DNA of 64,000 nucleotides, taken from Caldicoprobacterales bacterium (GTDB lineage: Bacteria; Bacillota; Clostridia; Caldicoprobacterales; UBA3941). The notes below the pieces were generated by a model, which saw only the letters and a program-made list of their open reading frames with translations, made no database searches and was not told where the DNA came from. The position numbers and the translations under genes were made by a program. This document shows positions 13,295 to 47,914 of the stretch, in pieces; the first letter of the stretch is position 1; every line of letters begins with the position of its first letter. Where the stretch lies: positions 140,665 to 204,664 of the forward strand of contig JBMNFJ010000016.1 of the NCBI GenBank assembly GCA_050949255.1. Reading direction: 5' to 3'.

Positions 13295-15955
13295 TTGTTA
13301 AAAGCTATAGGGCTAAGATGTGAGTATTTGACAAACCCCATAGGGATTGGTGAAACGAAACCAAGATTCGGTTGGATATTGGATTCGGACAAAAGGAATG
13401 TAGTTCAGGAGAGCTATCATCTACAGGTGGGTATGGATCAGAATTTTACTGATGTAATTTGGGATACAGGTATAGTCAGGTCTTCAGAATCCGCCCATGT
13501 TGAGTACGAAGGGCCTGAACTACAGTCATCGACCAGATATTTTTATAGGGTAAGGATAACCGATAACTACAAGAATGAAAGCCCTTGGAGTGATGCAGCA
13601 TTCTTTGAAACCGGGATTCTGGATCCCGATATATGGAAGGCGAGGTTTATCAGTCCGGAAGGGGATGATGAAGGAGCCTCATCTAAGGGAAAGCTTGTTA
13701 GAAAGGAATTTAAACTGGAGGACGAGATTGAGTTCGCCAGAGTTTACGTCACCGCTTTGGGAATGTACGAACTTTACATTAACGGTAGCAGGGTAGGGGA
13801 AGGCCTTTTGACACCGGGTTGGACCGACTATAGAAAAAGGCTCCAATACCAAACCTATGATGTTACCGATCTTCTAAAGGCTGGTGACAATGCCATAGGT
13901 GCATCCCTGGGTGTTGGCTGGTATAAAGGGGATTTAGGATGGGGTGGTCGTCGTAATGTATACGGAAATCGGATGGGATTTTTGCTTCAGCTGCTGGTCA
14001 GGTATAGCGATGGTCGAGAAGTTATAATAGTTTCTGATGCTGGCTGGAAGGCTTCAGACAGCCCTATAGTATATTCGGAGCTATATCACGGTGAAACCTA
14101 CGATGCACGGAAAGAACAAGCAGGTTGGAACATGCCAGGGTTTGATGATAAGGACTGGTCCGGCGTATGGGTTATGGATAAGGATTTATCAATTCTTGTA
14201 CCCCAGGACGGGGTACTGATTGTGAGGCAGGAGACCTTAAGGCCTGTATCCATGTTCAGAACACCAAAAGATGAACTGGTTATAGACTTTGGACAGAATA
14301 TGAGCGGCTGGGTCAGGTTTAAAGCAGAAGGTAATGCCGGCGACAGGGTAGTTTTAAAGCATGCCGAAGTGCTGGATGCAGAAGGAAATTTCTATACGGA
14401 AAATCTACGGTCAGCAAAGAACAGGATAGAGTATATCTTAAAGGGTGAGGGTATGGAGACCTTCGAACCCCATTTTACATTCCAGGGATTTAGATATGTC
14501 TTAATAGAGGAGTATCCGGGAAATGTTGATATAGAGAATTTCGAGGCTGTGGTAATCCATTCGGATATGGAAAGAGTAGGAGGTTTTTCATGTTCCAATG
14601 AATTGGTTAACAAGCTTCATCACAATATTCTATGGGGCCTTAAGGGTAATTTCGTGGATATACCCACTGATTGTCCCCAAAGGGATGAAAGGCTTGGTTG
14701 GACCGGAGATGCCCAGGTATTTATGAAGACTGCCTGCTATCTAAAGGATGTAAGGGTATTCTTTAAGAAGTGGTTTAGGGATATAAGGGCAGGTCAATTG
14801 GATGATGGGGGTATACCCTATGTTATACCCGATGTCCTCACGGAGATCAATGAGGATGGTTCAGTAGGTGATAATCACTCTGCGACCGGATGGGGTGATG
14901 CAGCAGTAATCTGTCCCTGGACACTTTATTTAACCTATGGTGATAAGCGGATACTAGAGGAACAATATGATAGTATGAAAGCTTGGATAGAATATATTAG
15001 AGGGAAGGCACAGGACGGAGTCCTTTGGAATACCGGGTTTCATTATGGGGATTGGGTAGCCTTGGATGCCAAGGAGGGCAGCTATTTTGGTGCTACTCCC
15101 AACGATCTGACGGCAACGGCTTTTTATGCCTATTCTACAGAGATTCTGGTAAAGACAGCAAGGATATTGGGAAAGGACGAGGATGCAGAGAAGTATTCAA
15201 GGCTACACGAGTCTATATTGAAAGCCTATAGGGATGAATTCTTCACCCCCAACGGCAGACTGGCAGCTCCTACACAGACCGCCCATATCCTCTCTCTGAT
15301 GTTTGGATTGGCACCAGAGGAATATAAGGAACGTACCATAAAGGGACTTATAAAATTATTGGACGATAATGACGGCCATTTACAAACTGGATTTTTAGGC
15401 ACACCGTATTTCTGTCATGTACTAAGTCAGAACGGCAGACTCAAGGAGGCCTACGATCTATTGCTGAAGGAGGATTATCCATCCTGGCTATATCAGGTAA
15501 AGATGGGAGCTACCACAATATGGGAGCATTGGGATGGCATCAAACCGGATGGAACCATGTGGAGTCCGGATATGAACTCCTTTAATCATTATGCTTATGG
15601 TTCCATAGGCGATTGGCTCTACGGGGTAGTTGCAGGCTTGAATACAGACCCTGAGAATCCAGGTTTTAAGCGTGCCCTCATGAGACCCCAGCCTGGGGGA
15701 GGATTGACCTATGCAAGGGCTGAGTATAAGAGTGTATATGGAAAGATCGCAATAAAATGGGCTATAAAGGATGGGAATATGGTGGTGGATGTTATGGTGC
15801 CTCATAATACTACCGCCCATCTGGTTTTGCCCTATGCTGATTCAGAGGCCATTGTTGGGGATAATGTAGAATTCACTTCCTGTCCTGGCGGCTGCCAAGC
15901 GGAGATCGGTTCAGGTACTTATAGTTTCACTTATCCTTATAAGGGTGATAATTAA
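13295..15955 (+). CDS. Alpha-L-rhamnosidase (GH78)
   Basis: LKAIGLRCEYLTNPIGIGETKPRFGWIL is a typical GH78 N-terminus, and DCPQRDERLGWTGDAQVF is the catalytic-domain motif. I prefer TTG 13295 (AAAGGAG 8 nt upstream) over the track start 13232. Confidence 0.85.
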   Translation: MLKAIGLRCEYLTNPIGIGETKPRFGWILDSDKRNVVQESYHLQVGMDQNFTDVIWDTGIVRSSESAHVEYEGPELQSSTRYFYRVRITDNYKNESPWSDAAFFETGILDPDIWKARFISPEGDDEGASSKGKLVRKEFKLEDEIEFARVYVTALGMYELYINGSRVGEGLLTPGWTDYRKRLQYQTYDVTDLLKAGDNAIGASLGVGWYKGDLGWGGRRNVYGNRMGFLLQLLVRYSDGREVIIVSDAGWKASDSPIVYSELYHGETYDARKEQAGWNMPGFDDKDWSGVWVMDKDLSILVPQDGVLIVRQETLRPVSMFRTPKDELVIDFGQNMSGWVRFKAEGNAGDRVVLKHAEVLDAEGNFYTENLRSAKNRIEYILKGEGMETFEPHFTFQGFRYVLIEEYPGNVDIENFEAVVIHSDMERVGGFSCSNELVNKLHHNILWGLKGNFVDIPTDCPQRDERLGWTGDAQVFMKTACYLKDVRVFFKKWFRDIRAGQLDDGGIPYVIPDVLTEINEDGSVGDNHSATGWGDAAVICPWTLYLTYGDKRILEEQYDSMKAWIEYIRGKAQDGVLWNTGFHYGDWVALDAKEGSYFGATPNDLTATAFYAYSTEILVKTARILGKDEDAEKYSRLHESILKAYRDEFFTPNGRLAAPTQTAHILSLMFGLAPEEYKERTIKGLIKLLDDNDGHLQTGFLGTPYFCHVLSQNGRLKEAYDLLLKEDYPSWLYQVKMGATTIWEHWDGIKPDGTMWSPDMNSFNHYAYGSIGDWLYGVVAGLNTDPENPGFKRALMRPQPGGGLTYARAEYKSVYGKIAIKWAIKDGNMVVDVMVPHNTTAHLVLPYADSEAIVGDNVEFTSCPGGCQAEIGSGTYSFTYPYKGDN

Positions 15956-36896: not shown

Positions 36897-36925
36897 TTGA
36901 CAATAAAATCAGAATTTGATAAATT
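36897..36925 (+). promoter_or_regulatory. Promoter of the T-box leader (extended -10)
   Basis: TTGACA (36897-36902), a 17-nt spacer containing TGA, then TAAATT (36920-36925). Confidence 0.6.
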
Positions 36926-36946
36926 AACAGGCAATACTATAAAAAG

Positions 36947-37228
36947 CCATGATGGGGAAAAAGCATTGTAATCTCCTTTCAGAGAGCTGTTGGTTGCTGG
37001 AAAACAGTAGGAATTACAAAGGCGAGCTCGCCCTGGAGCAGTTTTGCCGAAAGTAGTTATTTTTTTATAGCTATTAGTAGGCAAGACCGGATTTATCCGC
37101 CGTTATACGGGTGTGTAGGTGTCTTTCTTGACCCTATCATTGAGTGGATATATAAATATCAATTAGAGTGGTACCACGGAAGTTAAGGCTTTCGTCTCTA
37201 GCATAATGCTGAAGACGAGAGCCTTTTT
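36947..37228 (+). promoter_or_regulatory. T-box riboswitch leader (tRNA-sensing antiterminator), probable CUC (Leu) specifier
   Basis: GA/K-turn UGAUGG (36950) pairs with GGAGCA (37035). AG bulge AGAGAG at 36981-36986. Distal hairpin CUGUU...AACAG at 36987-37007. F-box CCGUUA at 37100-37105. T-box AGAGUGGUACCACG at 37165-37178. Antiterminator helices are AGAG/CUCU and ACGGAAG/CUUUCGU. The competing terminator is GGCUUUCGUCU (37187-37197) with AGACGAGAGCC (37213-37223) plus UUUUU. Confidence 0.85.
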
Positions 37229-37327
37229 AAGTTTATACATTTTTAGAAATATAATAGTGGAAGTTTCAAAATATATTTCAGTATATTTGAAATCCCTTTA
37301 GGAGATGAAAAACTAGGAGGAAAGAGC

Positions 37328-39859
37328 ATGAAACTAGCATTTTCAACCCTTGGATGTCCGGATTTTAGCTGGCCGGAAATCTATTCAATGGCCAGCGACT
37401 TTGGCTTTGACGGGATAGAGATAAGGGGTCTGGGCAAGGATATTTTTGCTGTTGAGGCCCAGCCTTTTACAGAAGAACAACTTCCTAAAACCATAAATAA
37501 GTTATCAGAACTTGGGATTGAGATTCCCTGTCTATCATCAGGTTGTTGTCTTAAGTTTGCTGAGAAGGCAGAGGAGAATCATGAGGAGATAGTTAAATAT
37601 ATCCTGTTGGCATCTAGGCTGGGTACTCCCTATGTCCGTATTCTTGCGGATCTCAAACCCCATCCTACCGGTGAAGTAGACGATGGGGTAGTCCTGGCTG
37701 CTCTGGAACGTCTTATTCCTGTTGCAGAGGAGAATGAGGTAACCTTATTAATAGAAACCAATGGCGTTTACGCAGATACAACCCGCCTGTGTAGTCTGCT
37801 TAATGAAATATCCAGCGATGCCGTAGCAGCCCTATGGGATATAAATCATCCCTACCACTTTGCCGGAGAAACACCGGGGCAGACTGTTCAAAACCTGGGA
37901 GCTTACATTAAATATGTACATACCAAGGATTCAGTGATGGAGGATGGTATAGTTAAGTATAGAATGATGGGAGAGGGCGAGATACCCATGGATAAAGTTA
38001 TGATGGCCTTGCGCTCTATAAACTATGAGGGCTATCTCTCCTTAGAATGGGTAAAACGTTGGTCTTCAGACCTGGCTGAAGCCGGGGTCGTCTTCCCTAA
38101 TTATGCCGCCTATATGAGTAGATATATAGAAAAAGGCTCTATAAAGGGCCACCTATATGACAATAATGCCGGGACCGGTAAATATATTTGGCAGAAGGAT
38201 ACTTTGATTGATCTGACCTTTCCTCAGTTATTGGATCGGGTTGTAGACGAATTCCCAAATCAATATGCTTTTCGATATACAACAATGGATTATACCCGAA
38301 CCTATAAGGAGTTTAGGGATGATGTGGATGCTTTTGCCCGTTCATTGATTGCAATAGGTGTAAAACACGGGGACAAAGTGGCTATCTGGGCAACCAATGT
38401 GCCTCAGTGGTTTATTGCCTTTTGGGCTACAACCAAGATTGGCGCTATTTTGGTCACAGTCAACACCGCCTATAAGACTTATGAGATGGAATACCTGCTA
38501 AGGCAATCGGACACCCATACCTTGATAATGATTGATGGATATAAGGATTCCGATTACATCGCAATTATCAAAGAATTATGTCCAGAATTGGAAGAGTCGG
38601 AGGCAGGAAAGCCCTTGCATATAAGGAAGTTCCCCTTCCTTAGAAATATTATTACTATTGATTCTAAACAAAAGGGATGTTTGACCTGGGAGGAAGCCCT
38701 GGCCTTAGGCGAAAAAGTGCCCTTGGAAGAGGTTTATAGAAGGGCCCAATCCTTGAATCGGCATGATGTCTGTAACATGCAGTACACCTCCGGAACTACG
38801 GGCTTTCCCAAAGGAGTAATGCTTACCCATTACAATGTGGTTAACAACGGCAAAAATATCGGCGATAATATGGATCTGTCAACTGCGGACCGAATGATGA
38901 TCCAGGTACCCATGTTCCATTGCTTTGGTATGGTTCTTGCTATGACAGCTGCCGTTACCCATGGAACTACTATGTCGCCCTTACCATACTTTTCACCCAG
39001 ATTGGCACTAAGGTGTATTACAGAGGAGAAGATCACCTGTTTCCATGGCGTACCTACTATGTTTATCGCCTTATTAGAGCATGAGGATTTTCATAAAACG
39101 GACTTTTCTCATGTGAGAACCGGTATTATGGCCGGCAGTCCTTGTCCTGAAAAGGTCATGCAGGATGTGGTAGATAAAATGAATATGACTGAGATCACTA
39201 TTGTCTATGGTCAGACTGAATCTTCTCCCGGTTGTACTCAAAGTCGGGTGGATGATAGTGTTGAGCTTCGGGTAAGCACCGTGGGCCGAGCCCTGCCCGG
39301 AATCGAATGTAAAATAATTGATCCTAAGACAGGGGAAGATCTGCCTGACAATGTAGATGGCGAATTCGTAGTTAGGGGTTACAATATAATGAAGGGCTAT
39401 TACAAAATGCCAGAGGCTACCGCCGCTGTAATAGATCAGGATGGCTGGCTTCATACCGGTGATCTGGCCCGTAGGGATGAAAATGGTTACTACAAAATTA
39501 CCGGCCGGATCAAGGACATGATAATTCGGGGCGGAGAAAACATATATCCAAAGGAGATCGAGGACTTCATCTATACTCATCCCAAGGTTAAGGATGTTCA
39601 GGTAATCGGGGTTCCCGATGAGCAGTATGGAGAAGAAATCATGGCCTGCGTAATCCTAAAAGACGGCGAGGAGCTGACGGAGGATGAACTAAAGGATTAT
39701 GTTCGGTCTTCCATGGCCAAGCACAAGACCCCTCGCTATGTTGAATTTGTAAAGGAATTCCCAATGAATGCCGCAGGTAAGATTATGAAGTATAAACTCC
39801 GAGAACAGGCGACTGAAAAACTAAATCTGAGGAATAGTAATCATATAGTCATAGTTTGA
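37328..39859 (+). CDS. Fusion protein: xylose-isomerase-like TIM barrel (N-terminal, about 270 aa) + AMP-forming acyl-CoA synthetase/ANL adenylating enzyme (C-terminal, about 560 aa)
   Basis: The N-terminus reads MKLAFSTLGCPDFSWPEIY...GFDGIEIRG...LLIETNG...YLSLEW. The C-terminus has MQYTSGTTGFPKGVMLTH, VYGQTESSP, TGDLARRDENGYYKITGRIKDMIIRGGENIYPKEIE and AGKIMKYKLRE. It is one uninterrupted frame with RBS AGGAGG. Confidence 0.85.
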   Translation: MKLAFSTLGCPDFSWPEIYSMASDFGFDGIEIRGLGKDIFAVEAQPFTEEQLPKTINKLSELGIEIPCLSSGCCLKFAEKAEENHEEIVKYILLASRLGTPYVRILADLKPHPTGEVDDGVVLAALERLIPVAEENEVTLLIETNGVYADTTRLCSLLNEISSDAVAALWDINHPYHFAGETPGQTVQNLGAYIKYVHTKDSVMEDGIVKYRMMGEGEIPMDKVMMALRSINYEGYLSLEWVKRWSSDLAEAGVVFPNYAAYMSRYIEKGSIKGHLYDNNAGTGKYIWQKDTLIDLTFPQLLDRVVDEFPNQYAFRYTTMDYTRTYKEFRDDVDAFARSLIAIGVKHGDKVAIWATNVPQWFIAFWATTKIGAILVTVNTAYKTYEMEYLLRQSDTHTLIMIDGYKDSDYIAIIKELCPELEESEAGKPLHIRKFPFLRNIITIDSKQKGCLTWEEALALGEKVPLEEVYRRAQSLNRHDVCNMQYTSGTTGFPKGVMLTHYNVVNNGKNIGDNMDLSTADRMMIQVPMFHCFGMVLAMTAAVTHGTTMSPLPYFSPRLALRCITEEKITCFHGVPTMFIALLEHEDFHKTDFSHVRTGIMAGSPCPEKVMQDVVDKMNMTEITIVYGQTESSPGCTQSRVDDSVELRVSTVGRALPGIECKIIDPKTGEDLPDNVDGEFVVRGYNIMKGYYKMPEATAAVIDQDGWLHTGDLARRDENGYYKITGRIKDMIIRGGENIYPKEIEDFIYTHPKVKDVQVIGVPDEQYGEEIMACVILKDGEELTEDELKDYVRSSMAKHKTPRYVEFVKEFPMNAAGKIMKYKLREQATEKLNLRNSNHIVIV

Positions 39860-39889
39860 TGAAAATCAATTATACACAACTGGTTATAT

Positions 39890-39930
39890 AAGAAGGAACT
39901 GCGATACGGATTTGCAGTTCCTTCTTGTAT
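39890..39930 (+). terminator. Intrinsic terminator after the fusion gene
   Basis: AAGAAGGAACTGC (39890-39902) pairs with GCAGTTCCTTCTT (39914-39926), a 13-bp perfect stem. The U-tract is short. Confidence 0.7.
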
Positions 39931-40096
39931 GGAATGTTTAGGCAAATTTTAAAAGGATTATAAGAAAGTATGTAGAATAATGTATCATTAATCAAGTCTT
40001 CCTATAAGGGTAAACAAGAAAACACTGGAATAGGAATTGTAGGCTCTTTGTAAAGGATCTGTCTTAATAAAGGAGAGATTTTGGAGGGATATCAAG

Positions 40097-45846: not shown

Positions 45847-46686
45847 TCATTTTATCTGTGTGGGAAGAAGTTTTCCAAATCAACCGTCTCAGCTCTTTGC
45901 AAGAATCTGGATCCTATGGTGGAAGCCTTTAGAACACGACCTCTAAAGTGCCATTACCCCTTCCTCATGGTGGATGCCATCTATGTAAAGGTACGGGAGA
46001 ATGGCCGTATACAGTCAAGAGGTTTACTGATTGCCATAGCCGTAAATGAAGAAGGCCATCGTGAAATCATCGGATTTCAATTAGCCAACAGCGAATCAGA
46101 AAGCAGTTGGGGAGAGCTCTTCTCTTCCCTTAAGGACCGAGGACTAAAGAACGTTGATCTGGTTACCTCCGATGACCACAAAGGACTGGTCAATGCTATT
46201 AGAAGGCACTTTCAGGGAACCAGCTGGCAGCGTTGTCAAACTCACTTTTCCAGGAACATGCTGGATCATACGCCGAAAGCATTGCAGCCTGAAGTTAAGG
46301 AAGAACTGCGCCGGCTTTACGAATCCGTTGATCTGGAGAGTGCTCGCAAGGTTCGGGATCAGATCATCAAAACCTATGAATCCAAAGCACCAAAGGCTAC
46401 AGCTTTACTGGACGAGGCCTTTGATGACATAACCGCTGTTCTTGCACTGCCCCTGAAGTATCGGAAACGGCTACGCACTACCAATGGTGTAGAGAGGCTT
46501 AACCAGGAAATCCGTCGTCGGGAACGGGTGATTAGAATCTTCCCCAATGCGGCATCTGTCATCCGGCTCATGGGCGCTCTATTGATGGAGCATGATGAAA
46601 AATGGCAAACAGGGCGTAAATACTTTGATATGGCTCTATATTATCAAATACAGGACAAAGAATTAAAGGATAGCCCCGCTGCCTAA
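45847..46686 (+). mobile_element. 5'-truncated IS256-family (mutator-type) transposase gene remnant
   Basis: Homology-like sequence starts at ...[25 protein letters not shown], right after an in-frame stop at 45844. The DDE residues are retained (MVDAIYVKVR, VTSDDHKGL, GVERLNQEIRRR). The N-terminal part (roughly 130-150 aa expected) and the left IS end are missing. Confidence 0.8.
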
Positions 46687-47026: not shown

Positions 47027-47914
47027 ATGAGTATTAAGACTAAGGGCAGACTTAACGATATTACTACCGGTAATCCAGAATCATGGGGTTTGGGTATATC
47101 ATCTTCATTATTTTCTACCCTTGATGAGACTGTTTTTTTACAGTGTATGGAGGCTGGAATAGAGAATATGGAAGTATGCCTCCTGGGGGATTGGGTACGC
47201 AACCCTGACAATGAGGTATCCCGGGTTTGCGCCGAAATAAAGGATAAAGCGGATAAGGCAGGTATGAATGTATGGTCCATACATTTGCCTTTTGGATGGG
47301 ACTGGGATATATCTGAACCCGATATAGGTAGAAGGAAAGCAGCCATAGATGGACAAATTCGTCTACTGGAATTGGCCGCAATACTGGAACCAAAAAAAGC
47401 TGTTATCCATGGGAGTTTTGAACCCATTGGGGATAATGAGCGGGATGCCCGGATATCGGCATGTAGGGATTCCCTTAGGATTATAGGTGAAAAGGCAGCT
47501 TCAATAGGGGTAGAACTAGCCATCGAGTGCCTGCCTAGAACATGTCTGGGCAACTCCATCCAGGAGATGGAGAAATTGATACAAGGAAACGACAAGATAG
47601 GTGTCTGCTGTGATACCAATCATCTATTCAGAGAATCACCGGGAGATTTTATAAGGAAGACAGGGTCCAGGGTTGTGACGCTGCATGTTTCCGATTTTGA
47701 TGGGGTCGATGAGCGTCATTGGATGCCTGGGAAGGGTATAGTAGATTGGAATGATGTAATTGCCGCCTTGGTGGAAGTGGGCTATGAGGGTCCATTTACC
47801 TTTGAACTCTCCCACAAAAACACAGAGGAGACATACACTCCTAAAAAAATTGCTGAATGTTGGGAAGGGCTTTTGGGAGCATACAAGGCATCTAATTCCT
47901 ATTTTGCAAGGTAA
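47027..47914 (+). CDS. Sugar phosphate isomerase/epimerase (xylose-isomerase-like TIM barrel)
   Basis: 295 aa with the AP-endonuclease-2/TIM-barrel pattern (LAIECLPR, LHVSD, YEGPFTFEL). Confidence 0.75.
   Translation: MSIKTKGRLNDITTGNPESWGLGISSSLFSTLDETVFLQCMEAGIENMEVCLLGDWVRNPDNEVSRVCAEIKDKADKAGMNVWSIHLPFGWDWDISEPDIGRRKAAIDGQIRLLELAAILEPKKAVIHGSFEPIGDNERDARISACRDSLRIIGEKAASIGVELAIECLPRTCLGNSIQEMEKLIQGNDKIGVCCDTNHLFRESPGDFIRKTGSRVVTLHVSDFDGVDERHWMPGKGIVDWNDVIAALVEVGYEGPFTFELSHKNTEETYTPKKIAECWEGLLGAYKASNSYFAR

Follow-up and report, generated by a model that had tools for sequence, protein, structure and literature searches.

A probable leucine T-box leader upstream of an orphan TIM-barrel/acyl-CoA synthetase fusion gene in a Caldicoprobacterales bacterium

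The DNA analysed here, referred to throughout as the window, is a stretch of 64,000 nucleotides (64 kb) from a Caldicoprobacterales bacterium (assembly GCA_050949255.1, contig JBMNFJ010000016.1, positions 140,665 to 204,664). Within it, a promoter, a T-box leader RNA (36940–37202) and a gene (37328–39859) follow one another; the gene encodes a protein of 843 amino acids (aa) in which a TIM barrel is fused to an acyl-CoA synthetase module. The leader and its elements, the promoter, the gene and the hairpin behind it all lie on the forward strand (+), and their coordinates are given as positions of the window. An earlier note, made from the letters of this DNA, had described the RNA as a complete T-box leader, probably specific for leucine, and its target as a non-canonical one for a T-box.

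The whole window was scanned against all 4227 Rfam families at their gathering thresholds, and the sole match in the 64 kb was the full-length T-box leader, family RF00230, at 36940–37202. With 124.8 bits (E value 3.1e-27), the alignment exceeded the gathering score, which is 93, and ran untruncated over model positions 1–219 of 219. This covariance-model search, which the earlier note had proposed, bore out its description of the leader as complete, with every element that it had named in its place.

For comparison across genomes, 80 orthologous loci were fetched from species-representative genomes by way of the downstream fusion protein, and T-boxes were detected in them with an nhmmer profile built from Rfam-confirmed leaders. 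Of the 80 loci, 36 have a homologous T-box immediately ahead of the fusion gene and in its orientation. RNAalifold, run on 35 aligned Stem I regions, predicted 19 consensus pairs, and compensatory double changes were observed for all 19, including those of the basal helix, which fixes the register of the codon.

In the window copy, Stem I spans 36946–37039, as delimited by the covariance-model alignment together with RNAalifold on the 35 orthologous leaders. According to the RF00230 alignment, its K-turn is formed by AUGAUGGGG (36949–36958) opposite CCCUGGAGC (37031–37039), and the helices flanking this motif covary among the 35 leaders. A helix of UUGUAAU (36966–36972) with AUUACAA (37013–37019), the AG bulge AGAGAG (36981–36986) and the distal helix and loop (36987–37007, with the distal loop GGUUGCUGGAA at 36992–37002) complete the stem, the AG bulge again being placed by the RF00230 alignment. 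The AG bulge and the distal loop, which make up the platform for the tRNA elbow, are nearly invariant across orthologous leaders.

The same alignment also placed Stem II (GUUUUGCC...GGCAAGAC, 37041–37087) with its internal-loop motifs GAAA and AGUA, the Stem IIA hairpin (CGGA...UCCG) with the F-box CCGUUA (37088–37105, the F-box itself at 37100–37105) and the Stem III hairpin (37146–37160). The T-box sequence proper, the 14-nucleotide (nt) AGAGUGGUACCACG at 37165–37178, carries UGGU at 37169–37172 and begins the antiterminator (37165–37199), which was read from the sequence. Here, helix A1 pairs AGAG (37165–37168) with CUCU (37196–37199), helix A2 pairs ACGGAAG (37176–37182) with CUUUCGU (37189–37195), and UGGUACC (37169–37175) forms a 7-nt bulge. 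The intrinsic terminator (37187–37228) consists of a 16-bp stem (37187–37223) with a 5-nt loop, followed by UUUUU (37224–37228); the folding energy of the terminator region is -31.4 kcal/mol (z = -4.9), a stability that 0 of 200 shuffled sequences reached. Bases 37189–37199 are common to both structures. Since the 5' arm of the terminator holds the 3' strands of the antiterminator, the two are mutually exclusive, in agreement with the earlier note, which had recognised such a pair ahead of the U-run.

This arrangement recurs in the orthologues. An antiterminator with a 4-bp A1 helix and an A2 helix of 5–7 bp, its 3' strand lying inside the 5' arm of the terminator, could be drawn in 34 of 35 leaders, and helix A1 covaries across them (AGAG/CUCU vs. 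UGAG/CUCA). Stable terminator hairpins followed by U-runs occur in orthologous leaders as well. The RNA in the window is an ordinary, full member of RF00230 and a class I, transcription-terminating T-box.

The specifier slot of the covariance model is occupied by CUC (37027–37029), a leucine codon, followed by G37030 and the basal-helix strand CCCU. Specifiers across orthologues were taken from the alignment of the 35 Stem I regions, in which the first two bases (CU) are invariant; at the third, 33 leaders have C and two (L015 and L018) have G. As the change from C to G at the third base is synonymous, the specifier is a leucine codon in every leader, be it CUC or CUG. The CUG leaders also exclude a serine (UCN) specifier in the +1 frame, in which they would read UGG, a tryptophan codon; UGGU, under the usual discriminator rules, likewise speaks against serine. 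The U of UGGU pairs with the discriminator base A73, and bacterial tRNA-Gly has U73 and tRNA-Ser G73. Of 37 leaders, 35 have an intact UGGNACC motif, and all of these show UGGU in the bulge; a tRNA-Leu(UAG) met by chance in a related genome (L032) has A73. The alternative specifier offered by the earlier note, GGC (Gly) at 37021–37023, was not sustained, as it falls in unconserved columns of the 35-leader alignment; so does the base preceding CUC. Its preferred codon, CUC for leucine, and its match of UGGU to a tRNA with A73 such as tRNA-Leu stand after the comparison of specifier and bulge in orthologues, which it had recommended. CUC is, moreover, the commonest leucine specifier, accounting for 74% of leucine T-boxes (TBDB). 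The conserved specifier and bulge thus make it almost certain that the leader is a leucine T-box.

A perfect 12-nt palindrome, GGCGAGCUCGCC (37021–37032), spans the specifier codon in the window genome only and is absent from the 34 other aligned leaders.

Upstream of the leader, a sigma-A-type promoter (36897–36925) comprises TTGACA (36897–36902), a 17-nt spacer and TAAATT (36920–36925) with an extended -10 TG. The earlier note had placed a promoter at this very site. With 10 of 12 matches it is the joint top-scoring site in an 8 kb scan, in which promoter-like sites as a class are not enriched (23 found vs. 18.9 expected). The real support for it comes from its conservation: of 37 orthologous leaders, 34 have a site scoring at least 9/12 approximately 5–35 nt ahead of the T-box, compared to 2 of 33 control windows, and most of the orthologous sites combine an exact TTGACA with a spacer of 17 nt.

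Between the terminator and the ribosome-binding site (AGGAGG, 37315–37320, 7 nt before the ATG, read from the sequence) there is a TATAAT hexamer at 37250–37255. The earlier note had named a promoter at this hexamer, from about 37249, as something that would speak against control by the T-box. Such a promoter was not supported, the best match in the window gap reaching 8/12 and only 2 of 35 orthologous gaps reaching 9/12. The gap behind the terminator holds no conserved promoter and is often too short for one, with less than 45 nt between U-run and start codon in 11 of the 35 orthologues.

The same gap contains an AT-rich imperfect inverted repeat, TTTCAAAATATA / TATATTTGAAA (37265–37292), which overlaps three weak matches to a CodY box at 37238, 37261 and 37273, with four mismatches each. 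Three such matches within 60 nt are a local excess, since the whole 64 kb holds only 39. A CodY box in this gap was nonetheless rejected as a candidate, all matches having four mismatches and none being conserved in orthologous leaders.

Directly 3' of the stop codon of the fusion gene, a 21-bp perfect hairpin (39884–39932; -30.9 kcal/mol, z -6.5) that carries only a weak U-run is the probable 3' end of a monocistronic unit. This hairpin, and the fact that the neighbouring genes differ in almost every genome, point to a transcription unit made up of the promoter, the T-box and one gene.

The domain composition that the earlier note had given for the target, a TIM-barrel/acyl-CoA synthetase fusion, was confirmed by matches to PF01261, PF00501 and PF13193. 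The N-terminal domain (aa 1–268; 37328–38131) is a xylose-isomerase-like TIM barrel according to Pfam, with PF01261 matching aa 22–244 (E value 3e-26, 93 bits against a threshold of 31). An AF2 model of aa 1–280 alone gave a confident barrel (pLDDT 92), and a Foldseek comparison of this domain with the PDB returned UlaE, D-psicose 3-epimerase, AsbF and IolI at a TM score of approximately 0.75 and 15–19% identity. As these structural and sequence relatives are only generic, no reaction can be assigned to the barrel. Residues E143, D171, H198 and E240 are invariant or nearly so in homologues, and we infer from the PF01261 family that they are metal ligands.

The C-terminal part (aa 290–843 and the stop codon; 38195–39859) is an ANL (acyl/aryl-CoA synthetase) module, with PF00501 at aa 303–692 (316 bits, E value 3e-94) and PF13193 at aa 743–818 (78 bits). 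Its core motifs TSGTTGFPKG, YGQTE, TGD, GRIKD..GGENI and AAGK are intact in the translation, and the core motifs (A3, A5, A7, A8 and A10) are invariant in 35 homologues. The solved structures closest to the module are those of acyl-CoA synthetases, with feruloyl, fatty-acyl and malonyl specificities. A prediction of the full-length protein from a shallow alignment (pLDDT 63, pTM 0.48) was too weak to place the two domains relative to each other.

The fusion is encoded in at least 596 species-level genomes, mostly Clostridia, with a length of 843 ± 2 aa and identities of 65–87% across Peptococcaceae, Oscillospiraceae, Lachnospiraceae and others, and is annotated only generically, e.g., as "AMP-binding protein" or "fatty-acyl-CoA synthase". 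The exact protein of the window is also present in NCBI assembly GCA_900198705.1 and in anaerobic-digester and food metagenomes, and the fusion gene occurs in Ruminococcus flavefaciens 007c and related genomes (L077, L062, L067). When the TIM domain alone was used as query, the best matches were almost all truncated copies of the fusion, with no informative stand-alone relative among them. The fusion is almost never split, which argues that both activities are needed together. Stand-alone relatives of the ANL module, 44–55% identical, bear generic names only; one lies beside thiolase, acyl-CoA dehydrogenase and AtuA genes and one beside a lone PF00198 acyltransferase gene. No T-box was found at the loci of these ANL relatives, two of which (L089 and L090) offer only 160–205 nt of upstream sequence, too short for a leader.

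T-box-bearing loci are scattered across the whole tree of the fusion protein, which suggests that the pairing is an old association with repeated loss. Some leaders depart from the common form. In those of L013 and L071, Stem I with its CUC is kept and the exact UGGNACC bulge is gone, the profile matching only the 5' half in L013; these two may be T-boxes that are being lost. In a Lachnospiraceae genome (L054, 2768–3435), the distance from the end of the T-box to the fusion gene is the longest of all (375 nt) and the gene contains one in-frame stop, so this copy could be decaying or could reflect a sequencing error. A Flemingiibacterium genome (L032) has a second T-box at 14063–14335, approximately 5.5 kb downstream of a fusion gene that itself has none; AUC (Ile) occupies its specifier column, and the locus ends before its target gene is reached.

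By the established T-box mechanism, from which we infer the tRNA dependence of read-through, the transcript would by default fold the terminator at 37187–37228 and RNA polymerase would halt before the gene. When leucine is scarce, the anticodon GAG of uncharged tRNA-Leu would pair with the CUC specifier in Stem I, and the free 3' end of the tRNA (A73-C-C-A) would pair with UGGU in the antiterminator bulge. Binding of the tRNA would stabilise the antiterminator (37165–37199), which takes bases that the terminator needs, with read-through into the gene as the outcome; with charged tRNA, which cannot stabilise the antiterminator, the terminator would form. Judged from the conserved sequence elements, it is very likely that a leucine T-box switches on the fusion gene in this way, and, on balance, the regulatory logic favours a role of the fusion enzyme in leucine supply.

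Since the gene neighbourhood lacks conservation, the T-box alone gives a clue to the function of the enzyme. Its value here is that of a functional label: the RNA itself is of an already known type and teaches nothing new about T-boxes, and what is new is the conserved pairing of a leucine T-box with a widespread orphan fusion enzyme. Its presence in 36 of 80 lineages ties a strongly conserved orphan enzyme to leucine supply.

The leader resembles the leucine T-boxes of Bacillus subtilis leuS and ilvBHC-leuABCD and of clostridial leuS, leuA and leuACDB in that it belongs to RF00230 and is a transcription-terminating switch with a CUC specifier and a UGGU bulge that follows the same logic, by which a shortage of leucine would induce the gene. 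It differs from them in its degenerate S-turn and in its target, which falls outside the synthetases, leu/ilv biosynthesis genes and transporters. In the Leu column of the 2013 regulon tables, the Bacillales and clostridial genomes listed there show only leuS, ilv/leu operons, leuA variants and yvbW (PMC3766115), so that the pairing would extend the leucine T-box regulon past leuS, ilv-leu, leuA and transporters. The 2008 T-box survey, as far as its text and supplements were accessible, places 8% of T-boxes before genes of unrelated or unknown function and has no CoA-ligase entry in the supplements. None of the accessible papers describes a T-box ahead of a gene for an acyl-CoA synthetase, CoA ligase or AMP-binding enzyme; the search did not cover TBDB entries, so an earlier database listing is possible, and the pairing of T-box and fusion may sit unremarked in a database.

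The closest parallel in regulatory terms is the cysteine T-box of ubiG-mccBA in Clostridium acetobutylicum, which, according to the accessible part of its description (PMC2566862), likewise controls a route of conversion or salvage to the sensed amino acid and not a synthetase. That operon differs from the present case in encoding assigned methionine-to-cysteine enzymes and in having additional S-box and antisense control, whereas the unit in the window is a single gene whose reaction is only proposed. On the side of the enzyme, MbcS of S. aureus is an ANL enzyme that converts exogenous branched short-chain acids to CoA esters, the type of reaction proposed below for the C-terminal module of the fusion. 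Unlike the fusion, it has no TIM barrel and feeds fatty-acid priming, and it prefers 2-methylbutyrate and isobutyrate, isovalerate being a poor substrate (PMC10026030); in the accessible part of the same source we found no T-box control of MbcS.

Regarding the reaction, two considerations point in the same direction. ANL enzymes activate carboxylic acids, and rumen anaerobes such as R. flavefaciens were reportedly found by Allison and co-workers in the 1960s to make leucine by reductive carboxylation of isovalerate; the module may therefore make isovaleryl-CoA. In the same body of work R. flavefaciens is said to use isovalerate for leucine as well as for lipids. Cellulolytic Firmicutes of the rumen and gut need branched-chain volatile fatty acids for growth, and we know of no gene assigned to the activation of isovalerate or other branched-chain acids in these bacteria. 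In the route that we propose, the ANL module would convert isovalerate, a branched short-chain acid supplied from outside, to the CoA ester, and isovaleryl-CoA would then be reductively carboxylated to 2-oxoisocaproate, which would be transaminated to leucine.

We offer the link between the fusion and the isovalerate-to-leucine route of R. flavefaciens as a hypothesis. That isovalerate is the substrate is a tentative proposal, in which a salvage role is plausible. The earlier note had already speculated that uncharged tRNA-Leu could induce an enzyme activating a branched-chain acid such as isovalerate, for a salvage or reductive route to leucine; the present results speak neither for nor against this idea. 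In a wider version, put forward with more reserve still, the fusion would allow anaerobic Firmicutes living in the rumen, the gut and digesters to use branched-chain volatile fatty acids from outside the cell, above all isovalerate, for the synthesis of branched-chain amino acids, and the TIM barrel would perform a second step of the pathway. If this is true, the leucine T-box would point to a route of leucine salvage that neither published T-box regulons nor pathway maps contain. The pairing yields a specific and cheaply testable hypothesis on leucine salvage in anaerobic Firmicutes.

Several observations weigh against these proposals, at the level of the leader and at that of the enzyme. As regards the leader, the S-turn of the specifier loop is degenerate in the window copy (AAAAAGCA / GAG compared to the consensus AGUA / GAA); the RF00230 alignment deletes two of the AGUA positions there, and AGUA is kept in only a few orthologues. 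Only 28 of 35 orthologous leaders have a purine next to the specifier on its 3' side, and the 64 kb window contains no tRNA genes, the cognate tRNA-Leu(GAG) included. Further, 44 of the 80 orthologous loci have no T-box, which means that leucine control is dispensable for the enzyme. Among them are the closest relative of the window (L001) and nearly all of the R. flavefaciens clade, so that most fusion copies of that clade lack the leader, and the median upstream intergenic distance is 238 nt in the loci without a T-box compared to 473 nt in those with one. As regards the enzyme, the TIM barrel is not assigned to a step of any route from isovalerate to leucine. The best NCBIfam match of the ANL module, PRK12583 (fatty acid CoA ligase family protein), scores 725.5 bits, or 727.3 with the module taken alone; the cut-off being 832, the module is a near relative and not a member of that family. 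No branched-chain amino-acid genes were found in the 64 kb window. When the open reading frames within 5 kb of the fusion were clustered over 81 loci, no recurrent neighbour emerged, the largest cluster comprising 5 loci, and neither pathway partner genes nor fatty-acid synthesis genes are linked to the fusion in the 80 loci. A Liv-type branched-chain amino-acid transporter upstream of the gene in R. flavefaciens, considered as a candidate partner, was rejected, as Pfam assigns the proteins there to isochorismatase/GNAT, methyltransferases, PHP and DUF218.

The enzyme pair might instead carry out a different two-step conversion of another leucine precursor, in which the TIM barrel would catalyse a metal-dependent isomerisation, epimerisation or dehydration, with adenylation or CoA ligation as the second step. 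The substrate could then be a 2-hydroxy or 2-oxo branched acid or isocaproate, and isovalerate would not be involved. This is a possibility that we regard as worth keeping in mind, if doubtful. The strong constraint on both domains, with E143, D171, H198, E240 and the ANL motifs all kept, agrees with it, as do the near absence of split fusions and the fact that the structural relatives of the barrel (ketose 3-epimerases, UlaE, AsbF, IolI) act beside a carbonyl group; however, no known leucine pathway employs such a pair of enzymes, an identity of 15–19% to characterised barrels leaves no reaction assignable, and there are stand-alone ANL relatives, 50–55% identical, that have no TIM barrel.

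An improbable alternative to leucine salvage from isovalerate is leucine sparing, in which the same leucine T-box would govern an enzyme whose product, isovaleryl-CoA or another branched acyl-CoA, primes the synthesis of iso-branched fatty acids, so that scarce leucine is not broken down for membrane lipid. It assumes the same enzyme chemistry as the salvage route, and the fusion gene is present in R. flavefaciens (L077), the species said to direct isovalerate to leucine and lipids alike. A precedent is MbcS of S. aureus, whose activation of exogenous branched short acids by an ANL enzyme serves fatty-acid priming in the accessible part of its description (PMC10026030). On the other hand, T-boxes characteristically control genes that raise tRNA charging, that is, those for synthetases, biosynthesis and transport, in the portions of the literature at hand (PMC2494555 and the regulon tables), fatty-acid synthesis genes are linked to the fusion in 0 of 80 loci, and the role of the TIM barrel is left unexplained here too.

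That the T-box is a relic bypassed by a promoter past the terminator (TATAAT, 37250–37255), or that it answers to another amino acid through GGC (Gly), GCU (Ala) or UCG (Ser), is very improbable: the hexamer and the inverted repeat do lie ahead of the ribosome-binding site and all three codons can be read near or overlapping CUC, but the low promoter scores and short lengths of the gaps, the unconserved columns of GGC and of the base before CUC, the tryptophan codon that the CUG variants produce in the +1 serine frame, the fit of UGGU to A73 and not to U73 or G73 and the covariation of all structural elements, which would not be maintained in a relic, speak against it.

In two Oscillospiraceae loci, L089 (2690–3700) and L087 (5847–6815), a relative is followed by a lone gene with PF00198, the acyltransferase catalytic domain of 2-oxoacid dehydrogenases. 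The relatives linked to PF00198 are a divergent 825-aa fusion (P0250, ANL module 49% identical) and a stand-alone ANL protein (P0244, 54%). The PF00198 proteins share 51% identity with one another, and a gene of this kind is absent from the vicinity of all 80 main-clade loci. These neighbours may hint at the fate of the acyl-CoA product.

Elsewhere in the window, a second, stand-alone PF01261 TIM-barrel gene (295 aa) is located at 47027–47914, 7 kb downstream of the fusion. Following a MerR/TipAS regulator gene, a fragment of a Mutator-family transposase lies at 45916–46686 (profile positions 147–378 of 379). This spot varies among strains: the fragment is missing from L082 and L084, L081 has a 402-aa copy beside a shortened TIM-barrel gene, and L083 (GCA_900198705.1) carries entirely different genes there.

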